38,566 nt of DNA from Candidatus Parabeggiatoa sp. nov. 2 (GCA_002085445.1 NBMI01000153.1:1-38566); one strand, 5' to 3'; counted from the first letter of the stretch, positions 14,200 to 25,639 are shown. The notes: generated by a model not told the origin, from the letters alone. Program-made: numbers and translations.

Positions 14200-14745
14200 G
14201 AGCGAAGCGATATCTATGACTTACGCATTGACAAAATAAATTAATTTAGTTTTCAGTTAGTTATGTCTCAAAGGCCGAGGCCTTTACTGCTTCAGTTATA
14301 CTGAAAGTACAACTTCTTTTAGGAATAAACGGATTTTTAGGATTTGAAATTTGAGTTGAAAATCTGCTATAGATTTTCAGATAATTATTTTTTAGTCCCC
14401 TTTAGGGGACTTTCGCTTTCAGTGTTGGCTGTTTTGAACTTATTTTTATGAAAATCTATAGCTTGCTAATTCAATAGTTATCCCATTTTCACCTTTTTCA
14501 AGTACGTTCCGTATATTTAAATAAAATCAATTGGTAGCAAAAACTTTTGCCTTGTGCGGGGTTTCAGACACCCCGCCGATCTATTTAATTGGTAATAGCG
14601 AATAGGTTAGGACTTACGCATTGAAAAAATAAATTTAGTGAGTATTCAATCAGTTACGTCTAAAAGGCCCAGGCCGTTATTTGTAAATTTTCAATAAAAT
14701 CAAGTGGTTAGTTTGCTGAGTGCGTAAGTCCTATAGGTTAAAAAA
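14200..14745. repeat. Intergenic block with gacttacgcattgaca-family units (14213, 14608; inverted partial at 14720) and an agtcccctttaggggact hairpin element (14385..14440)
   Basis: String matches. The hairpin element recurs inverted at 17790..17860 and in variant form at 20258..20320 and 23810..23860. Confidence 0.75.
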
Positions 14746-15082
14746 AAACTTGCCAATTCGGAACGAATCGTTTATCATCACGCGCCTTCACTGAGAAGGG
14801 ACATATTTTGGATATCCCCCCATTTTCCCCCCTTTTAGGGGAGGCAAGGAGATTTAGGGATTTCGTTCCCCCTTTGAAAAAAGCTAATCTGTACCCACAA
14901 CTCAGTATGTCATTGAAAATGATATTTTTTTTCAATGATGTGTCAGTGGTTAATAACTGACTATTGGAAATTAAGTGATTGAATTAATTAGCTTATGTAA
15001 TAATTAGCTTTTGTAATTATTAACAATTAATTATTAATTAAAAAGGGGGCTAGGGGGATTTTTTTTTTAAATCACATACCCC

Positions 15083-15110
15083 TTGACACGCTCATTCTAG
15101 TTGGTAAAAT
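15083..15110 (+). promoter_or_regulatory. Candidate sigma70 promoter for the tRNA operon (TTGACA-16 nt-TAAAAT) with an AT-rich UP-like tract upstream
   Basis: Consensus -35 at 15083..15088 and near-consensus -10 at 15105..15110, about 17 nt upstream of the first tRNA. Confidence 0.5.
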
Positions 15111-15126: not shown

Positions 15127-15202
<76 letters not shown>

Positions 15203-15234
15203 AATTGAACTAAACTAATAGTTAATTGTTTTAT

Positions 15235-15310
<76 letters not shown>

Positions 15311-15329: not shown

Positions 15330-15404
15330 TGGCTGAGTGGCAGAGTGGTCATGCAGCGGTTTGCAAAACCGTGTACGTCGGTTCAATTCCGGCCTCAGCC
15401 TCCA
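15330..15404 (+). tRNA. tRNA-Cys(GCA)
   Basis: Acceptor ggctgag/ctcagcc; anticodon stem gcggt/accgt with loop ttGCAaa; T-arm gtcgg-ttcaatt-ccggc; CCA encoded. Confidence 0.88.
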
Positions 15405-15417
15405 ATTTAATCCTTAT

Positions 15418-15826
15418 GCCCGGGTGGCGAAATTTGGTAGACGCAAGGGACTTAAACTAATTTGAGCACCTAAGGCGAAATCTTTAGGTGAATGGAGTCT
15501 AATTCGGTGAAACCTGTCAAATGGCAACGCCGAGCTAAGCTCAATTCAGTAACAGGCTAGGGGTTCCCCTTTCCCTTTCCCTTTCCCCTTTCCCCTTTCC
15601 CATGGCCTTTTGCTGAGTTGAGAAAGTGTAGAGACCATACGGCTCCTGCCTTAGTAAATGCCTCTCTCCCCTGAAGGAAATTTTATAGGCAAAGACAGGG
15701 TCCAGACCACAAACACATCTATTAATTGATAAATGTCAATTGATAACGTGGCAGTGAAAGCTGTAGTTGGTAAGAAAATCCCTTGGTGGAGACACCGTAC
15801 CGGTTCGAGTCCGGTCCCGGGTACCA
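15418..15826 (+). tRNA. tRNA-Leu(UAA) split by a group I intron; exons 15418..15453 and 15775..15826
   Basis: 5' exon gcccgggtggcgaaatttggtagacgcaagggactt ends at U34. 3' exon aaaatcccttggtggagacaccgtaccggttcgagtccggtcccgggtacca restores the loop cttAAaa, a long variable arm, the T-arm and CCA. Confidence 0.85.
15454..15774 (+). ncRNA. Group I (IC3-like) self-splicing intron in the tRNA-Leu(UAA) anticodon loop
   Basis: Inserted between U34 and A35 and ends with G. Intron 5' end aaactaatttgagcacctaaggcgaaatctttaggtgaatgg, the P4/P5-like segment ggtgaaacctgtcaaatggcaacgccgagctaagctc and the P7-like segment gtagagaccatacgg closely parallel the cyanobacterial/plastid tRNA-Leu intron. Contains a (CCCTTT)n microsatellite at 15563..15601. 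Confidence 0.8.
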
Positions 15827-15902
15827 TTCATTTTCCCTCTTAATTATTTTCCTTCCTTAATTAAATGTGGGGACGGCAAACAAGAGTTGATAGATTATTC
15901 TA

Positions 15903-15999
15903 AATGTACACCGCACATTTTGGGCTAAATGCAGCCCCATTTTCTATCCTAAATGTACACCGCACATTTTGGGCTAAATGCAGCCCCATTTTCTATCAC
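15903..15999. repeat. 49-bp tandem duplication x2 that includes the exeA start codon and its first 15 codons
   Basis: ctaaatgtacaccgcacattttgggctaaatgcagccccattttctatc occurs twice in tandem; only the second copy is in frame with the gene body. Confidence 0.9.
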
Positions 16000-17779: not shown

Positions 17780-17985
17780 ACTAACACTAATTTCAAAACA
17801 GCCAACACTGAAAGCGAAAGTCCCCTAAAGGGGACTAAATAATTATCTGAATATCTATAGTAGTCTGTCAATGTCCTATTGACGGGTAACAGCAGTTTTA
17901 ACTTGGCACTGCCAAACTTTCTCTGGCACTGCCAAACGTTAGTTTGGACGACTGCCAAACTAACTCCTGCCAAACTTCTTTACAC
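17780..17985. repeat. Intergenic repeat block: inverted copy of the agtcccctaaaggggact element plus REP-like ctgccaaac units
   Basis: String and reverse-complement matches to 14385..14440 and to REP family units. Confidence 0.75.
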
Positions 17986-19839: not shown

Positions 19840-20460
19840 ATTGTTTATAATAAAAGATTACGCTTTTCAAAACGAATCGGCCTGTCGTTTTTATAAAAAT
19901 AACTACAAGGATTCGTTATAATAAGGGATTATCCTTGTTTATACAAAATCCGGTAATTATTTAAAGGATTACCCAATCCTTTCTTATCACGAATCGGCCT
20001 GTAGTTACAATAATAAACTACCCAATCCGCATCGATTAACGAATCGGCCTGTAGTTATAATAATAAATTCCCCAATCCGCATCGATTAACGAATCGGCCT
20101 GTCGTTTTTATAAAAATAACGACAGGGATTCGTTGCTTCTGAAGGTATTTTTCAATCAAGAATTCTCCATCCTTTCTTATAACGAATCCTTGTAGTTATA
20201 ATAAGAAATTCTCCCATCCGCATCGATTAACAAATCGGCCTGTAGTTACAATATAGATATTCAGATAATTAATTTAGTCTCCTTTAGGAGACTTGAGCTT
20301 TCAGACAATGTTGGCTGCGAAATACCCAATCCGCATCGATTAACGAATCTGCCTATAGTTACAATAAGAAATTACCCAATCCTTTCTTATAATGAATCGG
20401 CCTGTCGTTTTTAACAACAGCAATAACTACAAGGATTATTCATAATATCCTCCCAAGAGG
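19840..20460. repeat. About 620 bp of divergent intergenic space (flotillin <- -> hynS) built from iterated short units (acgaatcggcctgtagtt x6-7, ccaatccgcatcgattaac x4, ccaatcctttcttat x3) and the aactacaaggatt/aatccttgtagtt inverted-repeat element
   Basis: Direct counts of iterated strings; the same element family recurs at 25670..26040, 29940..29980 and 35145. Confidence 0.8.
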
Positions 20461-20496: not shown

Positions 20497-21591
20497 ATGT
20501 CAAAACCTCAAAGCATCGCCGAAAGATTAAGCAACCAAGGCTTCAATCGGCGCGACTTTCTCAAATTCTGTGGCATTACCGCCACTGTCATGGGTTTACC
20601 ACCCGCCGTGATACCTCAAATTGCCAATGCTTTGGAAAAAACACCAAGACAATCAGTCATTTGGCTATCATTTCAAGAATGTACCGGCTGCACGGCATCC
20701 CTCACTCGCGCCCATGCCCCCACCCTAGAACGTCTGATTTTTGACCACATTTCCCTAGATATTCACCACACCTTGCAAGCCGCCTCAGGCGAAGCCGCCG
20801 AACAGATCCGCAAACAAGCCATGAAAGACAATCAAGGCAATTATTTACTCATTGTCGAAGGCTCAATTCCCATTGGCAACCCCGGCTATTCAACTATCGC
20901 TGGGATGAGCAACAAAGACATGCTGATGGAAGTTGCCAAGGACGCCAAAGCGATTATTGCTGTCGGCACTTGTGCCGCTTACGGTGGTATCCCACACGCC
21001 TACCCCAATCCTACGGGGGCAGTCTCTGTTGAAGAACTTATCACCAATAAGCCTATCGTCAATATTCCCGGCTGTCCACCAATTCCGGTTGCCATTGCCG
21101 GTGTCATCGCGCATACTGTCACCTTTGGCACATTGCCAGAACTGGATTCCTTAAAGCGTCCAGTCACGTTTTTTGGACAAAACATCCATGATCGTTGTTA
21201 CCGCCGCCCCTTTTATGACAAGGGATTATTCGCTGAAAGTTTTGATGATGAAGGGGCCAAGAAAGGGTGGTGTTTGTACAAATTAGGTTGTAAAGGCCCT
21301 GTGACTTCTAATACTTGTGCCACCGAAAAATGGAATGCCGGTGTCAGTTTCCCCATTGAATCTGGGCATGGTTGCTTAGGTTGCTCGGAACCCAACTTTT
21401 GGGATGCTGGCAGTTTTTATAAAGCACTCTCAGTGCCAACCGGCGATTTCGCCCAAACGGCCGGCTATGCCTTAGCGGCCGGCGCGGCGGTAGGTGTAGC
21501 GACTGGACTGCTAAACAAGAAGAAAAAAGGCGACGCCGCCAAAAACCATGAAACCGTGACAATTAACGATTTAGATAGAAAACAACAATAA
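20497..21591 (+). CDS. hynS: [NiFe] hydrogenase small subunit, Tat-exported, with C-terminal membrane anchor
   Basis: Twin-arginine signal NRRDFLKFCGITATVMGL; FeS-cluster Cys motifs (CTGC, GCPP, CxxC...); C-terminal hydrophobic anchor YALAAGAAVGVATGLL. Confidence 0.93.
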   Translation: MSKPQSIAERLSNQGFNRRDFLKFCGITATVMGLPPAVIPQIANALEKTPRQSVIWLSFQECTGCTASLTRAHAPTLERLIFDHISLDIHHTLQAASGEAAEQIRKQAMKDNQGNYLLIVEGSIPIGNPGYSTIAGMSNKDMLMEVAKDAKAIIAVGTCAAYGGIPHAYPNPTGAVSVEELITNKPIVNIPGCPPIPVAIAGVIAHTVTFGTLPELDSLKRPVTFFGQNIHDRCYRRPFYDKGLFAESFDDEGAKKGWCLYKLGCKGPVTSNTCATEKWNAGVSFPIESGHGCLGCSEPNFWDAGSFYKALSVPTGDFAQTAGYALAAGAAVGVATGLLNKKKKGDAAKNHETVTINDLDRKQQ

Positions 21592-21774
21592 ATTGTCCAA
21601 ACCTAAAGGTTTGGACTCCAAGCTTTGGACAACACAATCAATCAATTGTCCATTGGAGTCCAAAGCTTCAGCTTTGGACAACACAATAAATTGTCCAAAC
21701 CTAAAGGTTTGGACTCCAGCCAAGACATTGGAGTCCAAAGCTTCAGCTTTGGACAACTTAGAGAGGAATTCATG
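21592..21774. repeat. REP-like palindrome cluster (tandemly duplicated ~97-bp unit carrying ccaaacctttaggtttgg and ccaaagcttcagctttgg hairpins) between hynS and isp1
   Basis: Strings read directly; the duplication unit begins inside the hynS stop region (acaacaataaattgtccaaacc...). Confidence 0.85.
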
Positions 21775-22434
21775 ATGACTTCTATAGACTTTTTATCATG
21801 GGTGCGAGGGCCAGTTTTTATTATGGCGACAGCCATTTTCGTTTTTGGTATCAGCTTGCGTTTGCTCGAAATAGTGTCGTTACGCCGCAAACCCGATTAT
21901 TCAGCACCACGCGGCAGTCGTATGGTTGGCGGTATGCGTACCCTATTCAGCCGCTCTATGTATGATAAAAGCACCTTTCAACGTTCCGCATTTACCATTG
22001 TGGCCGGCTATATTTTTCATCTGGGCTTGTTTATCGTTACGTTCTTGTCTGTGCCACACATCCTTTTATTTCGAGAACTGTTTGGTTTCGACTGGTTTGG
22101 ATTACCGACAATCCTCATTGATGCGGTAACGGTAATAACCTTATTGGCTATGTTAGTCTTGTTAATTCATCGACTGAAAAACCCTGTCCGGCGATTTTTG
22201 TCCACCTTTGAAAATTATGTCGTTTGGACTGTAACCTTTTTACCCTTGCTGACGGGCTATATGGCCTATCATCATAGCGTGTTCCCCTATCCGCTGATGC
22301 TGGGTTTGCATATTCTCAGTGTGGAAATACTGATGGTTGTGTTTCCTTTTACTCAATTAATGCATACCTTCACTTTATTCATGGCGCGTTGGCATACCGG
22401 GGCTAACGCCGGTCACAGAGGAATTCAAGTATGA
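21775..22434 (+). CDS. isp1: Isp1, integral membrane cytochrome b-like subunit (NarI/DsrM-like) of an Isp-type hydrogenase
   Basis: Five predicted TM helices with conserved His. Start ATG 21775 after RBS gagagg is preferred over the track start at 21625, which runs through the REP cluster. Stop overlaps the isp2 start (ATGA). Confidence 0.85.
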   Translation: MTSIDFLSWVRGPVFIMATAIFVFGISLRLLEIVSLRRKPDYSAPRGSRMVGGMRTLFSRSMYDKSTFQRSAFTIVAGYIFHLGLFIVTFLSVPHILLFRELFGFDWFGLPTILIDAVTVITLLAMLVLLIHRLKNPVRRFLSTFENYVVWTVTFLPLLTGYMAYHHSVFPYPLMLGLHILSVEILMVVFPFTQLMHTFTLFMARWHTGANAGHRGIQV

Positions 22435-23738
22435 GTGCGGCTACTTTTGAGCGCGGCTATAAAGCCTTTAAAGAACAAATAGATGCGCCAATCGCGGCCT
22501 ATTTTAGCAGTTGTGTTAGTTGCGGTATGTGTGCCGAAGCCTGTTTGTTTTTCACCGAAACTGGTGATCCGAAATACACGCCCATCTATAAACTTGAACC
22601 CTTACGAAAAGTCTGGGAACAAGAATATACCTTATGGGGCCGACTGAAAGCGTTGTTAGGAATAAGTAAAAAGCTGACTGATGACGAGTTGGCCGAATGG
22701 CAAGAATTGATTTATGGCAGTTGCACTATGTGTGGGCGTTGCACAATGGTTTGTCCGGTGGGCAATGACTTGGTGTATATGATTCGCAAAGCGCGTGAAG
22801 GAATGGCCGCTGCCGGGCATGCACCGCCTGATATCATCGTGGGTACTCAACGCGCCATAACCATCGGCAGTGCGACGGGGGTAGGCTTGCCCACTTTGCA
22901 AGCGCAAATCAGACGCATCGAACGCGAAACGGGTATGAAGATTCCAATGGATGTGCAAGGCGTTGAATATATGGCGCTGCTCTCCTCAATGGAAATTATG
23001 AGCTTTCCAGAATATCTGGAAGCCCTCGCCAAGATTATGAAATACGCAGGCAAAACGTGGACGTTATCGTCTGAAGGCTTTGAAGCCACCAATGCCGGTG
23101 TCCAAATTGGTGTTTCTGAGATTGCTAAAGAATTGGTCATGCGTATTGTCAAGGCGGCGGAAAAACTCCAAGTGAAAACCGTTATCAGTCCTGAATGTGG
23201 CCACGCTTATGGCGCGATACGCTGGGAAGGGCCTAATTTAATAGGTCGCCCCTTTACTTTTCGAGTCCAACATATTCTGGAAGTGCTAGATGAATGGCGC
23301 GAGCAAGGCAAACTGAAAACGGAAGGTTTTGAAAAGGCGCGTCTGACTTTCCACGATCCTTGCCAATCAGTACGGCGTGGCGGTGTCATTGAGCAACCGC
23401 GTAACCTCTTGAAAATGGTGGCGAGTCACTTTGTAGAAATGGAAGATCATGGCAAAATGAATTGGTGTTGTACTGGTGGCGGTGGTGTCGGTGCGATAGA
23501 AGAAGCCCATGAACTTCGTACCAAAGCCTTTAATCGCAAGAAAACGCAGCTTGATGCACTTAAAGTGGACAAGCTAGTGACATCCTGTGCGAATTGTCGT
23601 CTTGTTTTGGAAGATGGGCTTGAAGCTTACGAAATGGAAATGCCCGTTATGGGTTTAACGGAAATGATTGCCGAACATTTAAAGGAGGAAGGTGAAATGG
23701 AAAAGGATAAAGGACTCTATAGATTTTCAGAAAATTAA
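22431..23738 (+). CDS. isp2: Isp2, HdrD-like iron-sulfur protein (two 4Fe-4S ferredoxin motifs plus CCG domain)
   Basis: CVSCGMCAEAC and CTMCGRCTMVCP ferredoxin motifs; CCG-type cysteines (DPCQSV...NWCCTGGGG...CANC). Confidence 0.9.
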   Translation: MSAATFERGYKAFKEQIDAPIAAYFSSCVSCGMCAEACLFFTETGDPKYTPIYKLEPLRKVWEQEYTLWGRLKALLGISKKLTDDELAEWQELIYGSCTMCGRCTMVCPVGNDLVYMIRKAREGMAAAGHAPPDIIVGTQRAITIGSATGVGLPTLQAQIRRIERETGMKIPMDVQGVEYMALLSSMEIMSFPEYLEALAKIMKYAGKTWTLSSEGFEATNAGVQIGVSEIAKELVMRIVKAAEKLQVKTVISPECGHAYGAIRWEGPNLIGRPFTFRVQHILEVLDEWREQGKLKTEGFEKARLTFHDPCQSVRRGGVIEQPRNLLKMVASHFVEMEDHGKMNWCCTGGGGVGAIEEAHELRTKAFNRKKTQLDALKVDKLVTSCANCRLVLEDGLEAYEMEMPVMGLTEMIAEHLKEEGEMEKDKGLYRFSEN

Positions 23739-23749
23739 TTTCTTTGGCA

Positions 23750-23860
23750 GCCAACAGCACAGGAGTCCAAACTTTAGTTTGGCAGTCGTCCAAACTTTAG
23801 GCATCGTTTAGCTAAAGCCTACTAATAGTGCCCTTTAGGGTACTTTAGCTTTAAGCCTTA
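23750..23860. repeat. REP-like palindromes (ggagtccaaactttagtttggcagtcgtccaaactttagg) and an agtgccctttagggtact hairpin unit between isp2 and hynL
   Basis: String matches to the REP family and to the hairpin family seen at 14385. Confidence 0.8.
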
Positions 23861-23944
23861 GAATTTATTCTAAAGCTTAACTTAATGGCATTGGGGTGTG
23901 TTTGGGTTTTCATCGTTCCTTACCAAAGTCGGAGAAACGAACTA

Positions 23945-25639
23945 ATGAGTCACCGTGTTGTTATAGATCCGATTACCCGCATTGAAGGCCATTTACGCAT
24001 CGAAGCGCAAATGGATAAGGCGGGAAAAACCATTCAATCAGCTTATTCATCAGGCACAATGGTGCGCGGTATTGAAATGATTTTACGAGGACGTGATCCG
24101 CGTGATGCGTGGGCTTTTGCTCAACGGATTTGTGGCGTGTGTACGCTAGTGCATGGTATCGCCTCAGTGCGAGCGGTAGAAGATGCACTCAGCTACACGC
24201 CACCGCCCAATGCCCAACTGATACGCAATTTAATGATAGCAGCCCAATATGTGCATGATCATGTGATGCACTTTTATCTTTTACATGCCTTAGATTGGGT
24301 GGATGTGGTTTCGGCTTTAAACGCTAATCCCAAGGAGACTTCTGAACTCGCCCAATCTCTTAGTCACTATCCCAAATCGTCGCCCGGCTATTTTGCCGAT
24401 ATGCAGCGAAAGTTGAAGCATTTTGCTCAAGAAGGACAACTGGGCATTTTTGCTCAAGGGTATTGGGGACATCCGGCCTACAAATTACCTCCTGAAGCTA
24501 ATTTAATAGCCGTCTCACACTATTTAGAAGCGTTAGCATGGCAACGCGAGGTTGCTAAATTACATACTATTTTGGGGGGTAAAAATCCTCATCCTAATTT
24601 CTTAGTTGGCGGTGTACCCTGTGCCATTGATTTGAATTCCGATTCGGCCCTCAATGCCAAAAGACTCGCGCAAGTGCAAGACATTATTACCTTAATGCGC
24701 GATTTTGTGGATCAAGTCTATGTGCCAGATACTCTTGCCATTGCTGGCTTTTATAAAGACTGGGCGAGACAAGGCGAAGGCCTAGGTAACTTTATGACTT
24801 ATGGCGATTTTCCTGAAATGGGTAGGGATGATCCGTCGAGCTTTTTGGTTCCTTCGGGTGTGATTTTAAATCGTGATTTGAACAACATTTATGATTTAGA
24901 CCTGAACGCCGCTGACCAAATTCAAGAATACGTTTCTCGCTCTTGGTACAACTACAGCAGCGGCAAAGATAAAGGCCTCCACCCCTACGACGGCGAAACG
25001 GAACTTTCTTACACCGGCCCAACACCGCCCTATAAACAGTTAGACACTGACAAAGAATACTCCTGGGTAAAATCGCCCCGTTGGAAAGGCCCCGATGGCA
25101 GCATTCATGCGGTAGAAGTTGGCCCGTTGGCGCGCGTGTTGATGTTGTATGCCAACGGCCATGAACAAACTCAGGATATGGTAGATTACACATTGAAAAC
25201 ACTGGAGCTGCCGATAGACGCGTTGTTTTCCACTTTAGGCCGCACCGCGGCCCGTACCTTGGAGACAAAACTCATCGCTGATGCCATGCCAATGTGGTAT
25301 GACAATCTGATTGCTAATATAAAGGCCGGTGACACCAAGACGTTTAACGAAGAACGGTGGGAACCTTCTACTTGGCCGAAACAAGCGAAAGGAGTTGGTT
25401 ATATGGAAGCACCGCGTGGTGCGTTAGCGCATTGGATTGTGATAGAAGACGGTAAAATTGCCAACTATCAAGCGGTTGCGCCGAGTACCTGGCATGCCGG
25501 GCCGCGTGATGCGAATGGACAAGCTGGCGCTTATGAGGCCGCATTGAAAGGCCATGTTCTGCACGATCCCAAACAACCGCTGGAGGTTTTACGCACCATT
25601 CACAGTTTTGCGCCTTGTCTTGCTTGTGCGGTGCATTGA
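23945..25639 (+). CDS. hynL: [NiFe] hydrogenase large subunit; ends exactly at the conserved C-terminal His
   Basis: Start ATG 23945 behind RBS ggagaaacg. N-terminal ITRIEGH and RICGVCTLVH (L1 motif); C-terminal DPCLACAVH followed immediately by TGA. Confidence 0.93.
   Translation: MSHRVVIDPITRIEGHLRIEAQMDKAGKTIQSAYSSGTMVRGIEMILRGRDPRDAWAFAQRICGVCTLVHGIASVRAVEDALSYTPPPNAQLIRNLMIAAQYVHDHVMHFYLLHALDWVDVVSALNANPKETSELAQSLSHYPKSSPGYFADMQRKLKHFAQEGQLGIFAQGYWGHPAYKLPPEANLIAVSHYLEALAWQREVAKLHTILGGKNPHPNFLVGGVPCAIDLNSDSALNAKRLAQVQDIITLMRDFVDQVYVPDTLAIAGFYKDWARQGEGLGNFMTYGDFPEMGRDDPSSFLVPSGVILNRDLNNIYDLDLNAADQIQEYVSRSWYNYSSGKDKGLHPYDGETELSYTGPTPPYKQLDTDKEYSWVKSPRWKGPDGSIHAVEVGPLARVLMLYANGHEQTQDMVDYTLKTLELPIDALFSTLGRTAARTLETKLIADAMPMWYDNLIANIKAGDTKTFNEERWEPSTWPKQAKGVGYMEAPRGALAHWIVIEDGKIANYQAVAPSTWHAGPRDANGQAGAYEAALKGHVLHDPKQPLEVLRTIHSFAPCLACAVH

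Follow-up and report, generated by a model that had tools for sequence, protein, structure and literature searches.

How did a group I intron come to split the tRNA-Leu(UAA) gene of a giant sulfur bacterium, and is it likely to be a working ribozyme? The locus lies at positions 15418-15826 of a 38,566-nt stretch of DNA from Candidatus Parabeggiatoa sp. nov. 2 (GCA_002085445.1 NBMI01000153.1:1-38566), all of which was analysed and is called the window here. The first-pass annotation had described a cyanobacterial-type intron in a proteobacterial tRNA operon, and had concluded that either lateral transfer or an unexpectedly broad ancestral distribution was implied. Our comparisons favour a different history: the insert would be a functional, self-splicing IC3 intron in a presumably working tRNA-Leu(UAA) gene, vertically inherited in a Beggiatoaceae-related clade and not derived from cyanobacteria. 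We assign this reading, which rests on sequence comparison, a probability of about 0.88.

Exact matches of the window's M48 peptidase and NiFe hydrogenase small subunit to NCBI proteins of Candidatus Parabeggiatoa sp. nov. 2 and of Beggiatoa sp. 4572_84 identify the host as a giant sulfur bacterium of the Beggiatoaceae (Ca. Parabeggiatoa / Beggiatoa sp. 4572_84), and thus as a gammaproteobacterium. The neighbouring genes, which encode a metacaspase/Sel1 protein, a DO-GTPase, the hydrogenase small subunit, two ORFs (one of which carries Fe-S and CCG domains) and the hydrogenase large subunit, do not oppose this placement. At NCBI, Beggiatoaceae are filed under the family Thiotrichaceae.

The interrupted gene and its tRNA cluster

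The cluster and its candidate signals are as follows.

15083-15110, + strand: sigma-70-like promoter, TTGACA, 16-nt spacer and TAAAAT with an extended-10 TG (11/12 consensus positions; a consensus match only)
15127-15202, + strand: tRNA-Gly(GCC), copy 1 (ARAGORN; Rfam tRNA, 63.9 bits)
15235-15310, + strand: tRNA-Gly(GCC), copy 2, a tandem duplicate with a 108-nt period (ARAGORN, Rfam)
15331-15404, + strand: tRNA-Cys(GCA) (ARAGORN, Rfam)
15418-15453, + strand: tRNA-Leu(UAA) exon 1, 36 nt, with U34 as its last nucleotide and as the -1 U before the 5' splice site (ARAGORN with intron search)
15454-15774, + strand: group I (IC3) intron, 321 nt, ending in G (Rfam and ARAGORN -i)
15775-15826, + strand: tRNA-Leu(UAA) exon 2, 52 nt, from A35 onward, with long variable arm, T arm and encoded CCA
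15922-15995, + strand: two terminator-like hairpins, GGGCUAAAUGCAGCCC plus a T-rich tail, within a 49-nt tandem repeat (consensus matches only)

Run with default settings, ARAGORN missed the tRNA-Leu and returned only Gly, Gly and Cys from the cluster. With its intron search (-i) it reported a split gene with an intron at (37,321), that is, after gene position 36. In silico excision of the 321 nt yielded an 88-nt tRNA-Leu(taa) that folds as a normal cloverleaf, has a long variable arm and encodes its CCA, confirming that the exons rebuild a canonical tRNA-Leu(UAA). An Rfam search of the whole window with Intron_gpI (RF00028) bore out the proposal of a group I intron: the match, at 15444-15724, scored 58.6 bits against a gathering score of 50 (E = 1.6e-12) and was full-length, covering model positions 1-253 of 253. 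The intron starts with AAA and exon 2 with AAAA, and the 34/35 register alone gives both U-1 and a terminal G; the omega-G is G15774, directly before A35. The coordinates given earlier for a 321-nt insert between U34 and A35 ending in G were thus exact, with the register fixed by U-1 and omega-G. Moreover, the locus is real and no assembly artefact, since the 409-nt gene recurs with 99.8-100% identity in at least five independent metagenome assemblies or MAGs.

The promoter-like site stands 17 nt upstream of the first tRNA-Gly; together with the terminator-like sites it suggests a single Gly-Gly-Cys-Leu transcription unit. The number of tRNA-Gly copies is one or two depending on the assembly. 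At least part of this apparent copy-number polymorphism is an assembly artefact: one assembly (L006) has 100 Ns at the site.

The gene order was correctly recognised as the gammaproteobacterial glyW-cysT-leuZ arrangement. In an annotated E. coli chromosome, pgsA, tRNA-Gly, tRNA-Cys and tRNA-Leu follow in this order, and the Gly-Cys-Leu run, on one strand, matches that of the window. The tRNA-Leu of the E. coli cluster is 76-77% identical to the spliced tRNA of the window, and the protein genes that flank the cluster differ between the two. Among the genome matches listed (see below), Gly(GCC)-Cys(GCA)-Leu(intron) recurs in Stutzerimonas, Salinisphaera, two Betaproteobacteria and the loci L160, L202 and L143.

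Intron anatomy and predicted splicing

Helices were assigned by homology to the structural alignment of bacterial tRNA introns in Williams 2020 (10.1101/2020.01.27.920355), and sub-domains were folded with RNAfold. Core pairing was assessed for 24 pairs of P3, P4, P6, P7 and P8 over 95 introns; each pair is formed in 92-95 of the 95, with abundant covariation. All helices from P1 to P9 could be placed, and the window intron forms 23 of the 24 core pairs.

15451-15466, + strand: P1, CUU/AAA with the splice site between them, internal guide UUUGAG, loop CUAA
15467-15490, + strand: P2, a 9-bp hairpin with the GAAA-containing loop CGAAAU (GAAA at 15477-15480; RNAfold)
15494-15499, + strand: P3 5' strand, GGAGUC, pairing with 15641-15646 (6/6 pairs)
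15504-15509, + strand: P4 5' strand (6/6 pairs), followed by J4/5
15513-15524, + strand: P5/L5, followed by J5/4
15528-15533, + strand: P4 3' strand
15534-15627, + strand: P6 domain, consisting of P6 (GCU/AGU), a 10-bp P6a, P6b (AGGCUAGGGG/CCCAUGGCCU) and a 35-nt all-pyrimidine loop (15564-15598)
15633-15637, + strand: P7 5' strand, GACCA, with G15633 paired to C15702
15641-15646, + strand: P3 3' strand, GGCUCC
15647-15691, + strand: P8, UGCCU/AGGCA, with a 35-nt extension; four innermost pairs formed
15698-15702, + strand: P7 3' strand, GGGUC
15706-15774, + strand: P9 domain, consisting of P9 (ACCA/UGGU), an AT-rich P9a hairpin (15715-15750), a P9b hairpin (15751-15764) and the terminal AAG

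RNAfold of 15451-15490 gave ((((((....)))))) for P1, six base pairs in the layout of the published seeds, and the 5' splice site is marked by a U.G wobble between U34 (15453) and G15464. All six P3 columns are paired in 95/95 introns, with covariation. P5/L5 is minimal, with only 12 nt and no P5abc extension. The P6 domain folds as one long hairpin (-31.4 kcal/mol, RNAfold) whose loop repeats (CCCUUU)n with a period of 6 in 5.5 copies (TRF). A GAAA tetraloop (15756-15759) caps P9b; it and the GAAA of P2 may correspond to the peripheral tetraloops (L2, L9) that in IC3 tRNA introns dock into helical receptors. The P9 domain has the architecture of the seed Ncf2.Leu.3Ug and of our genome-scan matches. 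We looked for the P6, P8 and P9a inserts as repeats or MITEs and found no further copies in the window or the related loci.

The 85 core positions compared below are colinear, without indels, with 14 published IC3 seeds, at 55-70/85 identity. A database cited in Williams 2020 (10.1101/2020.01.27.920355) places the classical tRNA introns in IC3, and the same paper lists Leu.3Ug (34/35) among four classical tRNA intron sites, all of them IC3. Judged by its core, the window intron is a subgroup IC3 group I intron. It shares the site, the U-1/omega-G boundaries and the IC3 core with the Leu.3Ug class (Williams 2020) and with the 34/35 introns of Pseudomonadota (PMC13011429), and its P9/P9b 3' architecture with the seed Ncf2.Leu.3Ug. 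The window intron is longer than is typical of the class (321 vs 193-267 nt) because of its P6b extension with the pyrimidine-repeat loop and its extended P8 and P9a. For the (CCCUUU)n loop, the P6b repeat motifs described in lichen-symbiotic Nostoc (PMC4476775) offer a loose parallel.

The intron also differs from the Leu.3Ug class in an A.G at the closing pair of P7. This mismatch, A15637.G15698, is the sole broken core pair; the other 94 of the 95 sequences pair there, and it is fixed in all assemblies. By position, the guanosine-binding pair is G15633-C15702, where all 95 introns have G-C. Lying four pairs away from it, the mismatch would be expected to have a modest effect at most. In addition, J3/4, J7/3 and J8/7 carry several substitutions that are rare among the compared introns, and these, together with the A.G, may mean a reduced or conditional splicing activity.

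From this anatomy, expression of the gene can be predicted. The promoter-like site at 15083-15110 probably drives transcription of the Gly-Gly-Cys-Leu cluster, and the intron RNA would fold into the P1-P9 ribozyme. Free guanosine, held at G15633-C15702 in P7, would attack the phosphodiester bond 3' of U34 that the P1 wobble marks. The terminal G15774 would next occupy the guanosine site and the exons would be joined, ligation producing the anticodon loop CUUAAAA of the 88-nt tRNA-Leu. The data show the structure of the gene, its ribozyme core, how that core is conserved, where the intron falls in the trees and which host carries it; the transcription unit, actual splicing and the essentiality of this gene are inferred.

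Orthologous relatives and conservation of the core

Two metagenome-assembled genomes, one from Thiotrichaceae (L202) and one from Gammaproteobacteria (L143), carry an intron at the orthologous locus. In both, as in the window, Gly-Cys-Leu is followed by a gene for a GspA-like AAA ATPase, whose nucleotide sequence is about 74% identical to that of the window. Exon 1 is identical in the three, P2 is 100% identical and the spliced tRNA is 97% identical. The ribozyme core is identical to that of L202 at 162 of 170 positions (95.3%). P6a/b, P8 and P9a of the two relatives are, by contrast, unrelated in sequence to those of the window and still fold into hairpins, and the P8 extension is 35 nt in the window vs 157-160 nt in the relatives. 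In neighbour-joining trees of 85 positions, the three introns form a clade with bootstrap values of 99/100 and 60/60. Because the core is 95.3% conserved next to a gene of only about 74% identity, and because peripheral loops have been swapped, the pattern indicates purifying selection on what would be a working ribozyme, and vertical descent in the clade.

The same comparison bears on whether the intron might be a decaying relic that no longer splices, leaving the gene a pseudogene and UUA/UUG to be decoded by another tRNA-Leu copy. The P7 mismatch, unique among the 95 introns, and the rare substitutions in J3/4, J7/3 and J8/7 would fit such decay, as would the branch of the window, which is the longest among the seeds compared. 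We nevertheless consider decay very improbable. Conservation is concentrated in the core and the loops are free to vary; the P7 G-C, the U.G wobble, the omega-G, both GAAA loops and the full cloverleaf are intact; and the sequence is fixed in five assemblies. Moreover, the annotated tRNA sets of related genera lacked tRNA-Leu-TAA until interrupted copies were found (PMC4853749).

That report (Flood 2016, PMC4853749) concerned Ca. Maribeggiatoa BOGUAY and Ca. Thiomargarita nelsonii, strain Ca. Thiomargarita nelsonii Bud S10, and described the interruption as a putative group I intron whose type was left undetermined. The interrupted tRNA-Leu-TAA of BOGUAY is credited there to MacGregor 2013a, as cited in PMC4853749. 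The BOGUAY and Bud S10 genes share with the window the family, the tRNA and the missed annotation; homology of their introns to the window intron is presumed from family membership and from L202 and L143. tRNA introns go unmentioned in PMC5728499 and PMC4679880.

Cyanobacterial introns and same-site introns of other phyla

To assess affinity, we compared 85 core positions that are structurally homologous (P3; J3/4-P4-J4/5; P5'-J5/4-P4'-P6; J6/7-P7-J7/3-P3'-P8; P8'-J8/7-P7'). Global alignment of the whole intron with 24 transcribed seeds had been non-discriminating, since cheap gaps brought every identity to 70-84%, and core blocks were used instead. Trees were built by neighbour joining on p-distances over the 85 positions, with bootstrap values of 5-60% at nodes deeper than the Beggiatoaceae clade.

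Two panels of genes served for comparison. Scanning metagenomes for the cyanobacterial P9 signature gave a cyanobacterial-type panel of 75 clean introns with 31 distinct cores. The other came from a genome scan for tRNA-Leu(UAA) exon 2 combined with the non-cyanobacterial P7'/P9/P9b architecture, which matched at least 120 species representatives. Both panels were selected by pattern and hence hold a narrower diversity; what validates their members is the tRNA context, the core blocks and the covariation, not Rfam. Identities to the window core were as follows.

L202 and L143: 80/85
Other Gammaproteobacteria/Acidobacteriota: 72/85 at best, among the matches listed
Seed Eba21.Leu.2Ug: 70/85
Seed Azoarcus Ile2 (Aol6.Ile2.5Ug): 69/85
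Seed Sel1 (cyanobacterial Leu): 59/85
Seed Ncf2 (other Leu.3Ug): 58/85
31 distinct cyanobacterial-type cores: 57-61/85, mean 59.5

The cyanobacterial-type cores are no closer to the window core than alpha- or betaproteobacterial introns are. In the trees, the cyanobacterial cluster was monophyletic in 59/60 bootstraps, and the window clade was sister to the cyanobacterial introns in 0/60 bootstraps, and in 0/100 with Sel1. The cyanobacterial signatures CUCAGGGAAA...GGCAAUCCUGAGCC, GUGCAGAGAC and P9 AUUCUC/GAGAAU are all missing from the window intron, whose counterparts are UUCGGUGAAA / GGCAACGCCGAGCU / GUGUAGAGAC and P9 ACCA/UGGU. The spliced tRNA of the window has a mean identity of 82% to gammaproteobacterial tRNAs vs 66% to the cyanobacterial-type set. 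By these measures, neither the intron nor the tRNA of the window is cyanobacterial.

These results undo the earlier description of the intron as cyanobacterial-type. The likeness in the 5' end, P4/P5 and P7 on which it drew is present; it is not specific to cyanobacteria, since it is common to all IC3 tRNA introns. The cyanobacterial/plastid intron (Sel1.Leu.3Ug; Anabaena/Nostoc PCC 7120) does share the tRNA, the 34/35 site and the subgroup with the window intron, and differs in its P4/P6/P7 covariants, its P9 helix, its separate cluster and its exons, which are 66% identical. Azoarcus provides a closer core: its tRNA-Ile(CAU) IC3 intron, second among the published seeds, shares the P4 variant UCGG(C/U)G / CGCCGA and GGCAACGCCGAGC. 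Yet it occupies another tRNA at site 36/37, measures about 205 nt, has a minimal periphery and is unlike the window intron in the P9 region.

Lateral transfer of a cyanobacterial-type tRNA-Leu intron into the proteobacterial operon, with or without its tRNA gene, is therefore extremely improbable in our judgement, although the shared site and subgroup invite the idea and gene exchange between Beggiatoaceae and Cyanobacteria has been reported (MacGregor 2013c, as cited in PMC4853749). A transferred copy is hard to reconcile with core identities of 57-61/85 as against 80/85 in L202/L143 and up to 72/85 in other Gammaproteobacteria/Acidobacteriota among the matches listed, with the separate cyanobacterial cluster and the missing signatures, or with a tRNA body that is 97% identical to L202/L143.

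The genome-scan matches listed comprise 38 from Acidobacteriota, 27 from Alphaproteobacteria, 24 from Gammaproteobacteria, 8 from Betaproteobacteria, 7 from Bacteroidota, 6 from unclassified Proteobacteria, 3 from Planctomycetota, 2 from Chloroflexota and 1 from a cyanobacterium, and include Stutzerimonas, Salinisphaera, Xanthomonas, Rhodanobacter, Bordetella, Bradyrhizobium and Acidobacteriota. Among them are 79 clean U-1/omega-G tRNA-Leu(taa) calls, with introns mostly of 193-267 nt. tRNA-Leu(UAA) genes split at 34/35 also occur in eight viral contigs. A broad P4-P6 motif gave at least 120 matches on viral contigs and was too general for a genome scan; the cyanobacterial-type pattern gave 0 matches in viral contigs. 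The window intron would be one of this large set of tRNA-Leu(UAA) introns that share the site across several phyla, and would not descend from the cyanobacterial/plastid lineage. A deep-subsurface gammaproteobacterium is reported (Vepritskiy et al. 2002, J Bacteriol) to have its tRNA-Leu(UAA) split at this site by a group I intron that was judged nearer to Azoarcus and Agrobacterium introns than to cyanobacterial ones.

The suggestion of an unexpectedly broad distribution therefore holds in part. The distribution is broad, with at least 120 species; it is not unexpected, having already been published (Williams 2020; PMC13011429; PMC4853749). Williams 2020 (10.1101/2020.01.27.920355) counted 72 Leu.3Cg introns, every one in Proteobacteria, and the tRNA introns of Pseudomonadota and Cyanobacteriota are mainly found at 33/34, 34/35 and 36/37 (mSystems 2026, PMC13011429).

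Another possible history is that the Beggiatoaceae copy arrived recently from a phage or from a bacterium other than a cyanobacterium, by homing or reverse splicing. Among the matches listed, the cores closest to those of the clade do come from other phyla (Pyrinomonadaceae/Blastocatellia, Acidobacteriota; 70-72/85), the deep tree is at odds with taxonomy, and the split viral genes would be in keeping with such an arrival. Recent arrival is nonetheless very unlikely. The intron has no endonuclease ORF, its largest ORFs encoding 20-30 aa, and at 321 nt it falls below the >500 nt of endonuclease-bearing tRNA introns (PMC13011429). It occupies an orthologous locus in three species whose flanking gene has about 74% nucleotide identity, with peripheral divergence of a similar order, and two or more additional genera of Beggiatoaceae are reported to have interrupted copies (PMC4853749). 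Additionally, its GC content of 44.5% equals that of the window (44.1%).

Descent could reach further back than the clade. A single ancient intron at this site, passed on vertically since before Proteobacteria, Acidobacteriota, Bacteroidota and Cyanobacteria split and surviving in the Beggiatoaceae as one of its branches, is compatible with the orthologous locus in three diverged species, the lack of an endonuclease and the low support of the deep branches. We regard so deep an origin as unlikely, and prefer vertical inheritance of a functional IC3 intron within the Beggiatoaceae-related clade. In a lesser variant of this unlikely view, which concerns regulation, splicing, and hence the supply of tRNA-Leu(UAA), might be conditional owing to the P7 A.G and the polypyrimidine loop of 35 nt.

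As a discovery, the locus carries little weight: tRNA-Leu(UAA) introns at 34/35 are classical, documented in Proteobacteria and already noted in Beggiatoaceae. Its value lies mainly in annotation, since default tRNA finders overlook the split tRNA-Leu(UAA). On the strand opposite the intron-split gene, annotation pipelines place an ORF of 58 aa that is spurious. The Rfam Intron_gpI model is insensitive to such bacterial tRNA introns: 0/15 related loci were found at the gathering threshold, and at E <= 0.01 the scores among these 15 were 46.5 bits (L143), 45.1 bits (L237) and 38.4 bits (L185), the other loci being filtered out. Beggiatoaceae genomes consequently seem to be without tRNA-Leu(UAA).

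Taken together, our analysis adds to what is known of the Beggiatoaceae intron its assignment to IC3, its apparently vertical descent, in which the core has been strongly conserved and the P6, P8 and P9a peripheries have been replaced freely, and its position outside the cyanobacterial lineage despite the reported gene exchange between Beggiatoa and cyanobacteria.

Core and peripheral loops of the intron

Helix P7 (15633-15637 / 15698-15702) of the tRNA-Leu(UAA) intron is closed by A15637.G15698, the sole non-standard pair at this column among 95 IC3 tRNA introns. This pair is fixed in 5/5 assemblies compared for intron identity, and the same position is A-U in the sister introns carried at the orthologous locus by a Thiotrichaceae MAG (L202) and a Gammaproteobacteria MAG (L143). 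Family-rare substitutions also occur in junctions J3/4 (T15500) and J8/7 of the window intron.

Two peripheral elements were delineated in the window intron and its sisters:

Window 15564-15598: P6b loop, 35 nt, all pyrimidine, a (CCCUUU)5.5 microsatellite
L202 6592-6748 and L143 2070-2229: P8 insertion of the sister introns, 157-160 nt, AT-rich, with a long hairpin fold

The length of the microsatellite loop is constant among the five assemblies, and the loop is absent from the L202 and L143 introns. C-run/T-run motifs resembling it lie at window 14815-14836 and 15830-15863. For the P8 insertion, other copies in the same two loci were limited to partial matches of 17-27 nt, and no MITE link was demonstrated; an intron-MITE association has been described in Thiomargarita by Flood et al. 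2016 (PMC4853749).

Assembly variation and repeats around the tRNA cluster

A single substitution, C to A in the exon 2 T arm of L004 (equivalent to window 15811), is the sole difference in the 409-nt gene among the five assemblies. Comparison of the window with assemblies L001, L003, L004 and L006 revealed that tRNA-Gly(GCC) (window 15127-15310) is present in one or two copies, depending on the assembly. Because a scaffold gap of 100 N falls within the first tRNA-Gly copy of L006, part of this copy-number difference probably arose when the 108-nt tandem duplicate was collapsed in assembly.

Two repeats and a row of hydrogenase genes were mapped in the window:

15896-15997: tandem repeat, 49 nt, 2.1 copies, 98% identical, overlapping the start region of a GspA-like ORF
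14367-14461, 17792-17860 (inverted) and 20252-20304: dispersed intergenic repeat, about 95 nt, copies 85-94% identical
20497-25639: consecutively, a NiFe hydrogenase small-subunit gene, an unassigned 269-aa ORF, a gene for an Fe-S/CCG-domain protein, and a NiFe hydrogenase large-subunit gene

Each copy of the 49-nt repeat contains a terminator-like hairpin (consensus match). The repeat is present in one copy in L001 and L002, and both sister loci, L202 and L143, retain a version with 89% identity across 45 nt. The dispersed repeat could be a mobile or regulatory element of small size. The hydrogenase gene row has a putative hynS-isp1-isp2-hynL-like layout.

IC3-type motifs and split tRNA genes in viral contigs and bacteria, and intron annotation

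The IC3-type P4-P6 motif GAAACC...GGCAAYSCYGAGCYAAGC was detected in more than 120 IMG/VR viral contigs. Among the matches listed, intron-split tRNA calls contain 30 of 122 motif matches, and the viral split tRNAs comprise Leu-taa (8), Arg-tct (5), Tyr, Phe, Met and others. In the bacterial genome scan, exon 1 ends in CTC (C rather than U at -1, the Leu.3Cg type) at 6 of 86 loci among the matches listed. In the core tree, the published Leu.3Cg seed Bba346 is surrounded by a group made up of beta- and gammaproteobacterial loci.

Public gene calls for L001-L006 include an antisense 58-aa hypothetical ORF (window 15651-15827, minus strand) over the intron 3' part and exon 2, evidently a spurious call that arises because the split tRNA-Leu goes unrecognised. 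At its gathering score, Rfam Intron_gpI reported none of 15 bacterial tRNA-Leu introns sampled from the genome-scan loci, and 3 of the 15 reached 38-47 bits at a relaxed threshold. These misses are a systematic annotation blind spot, in agreement with Williams 2020 (bioRxiv 10.1101/2020.01.27.920355).
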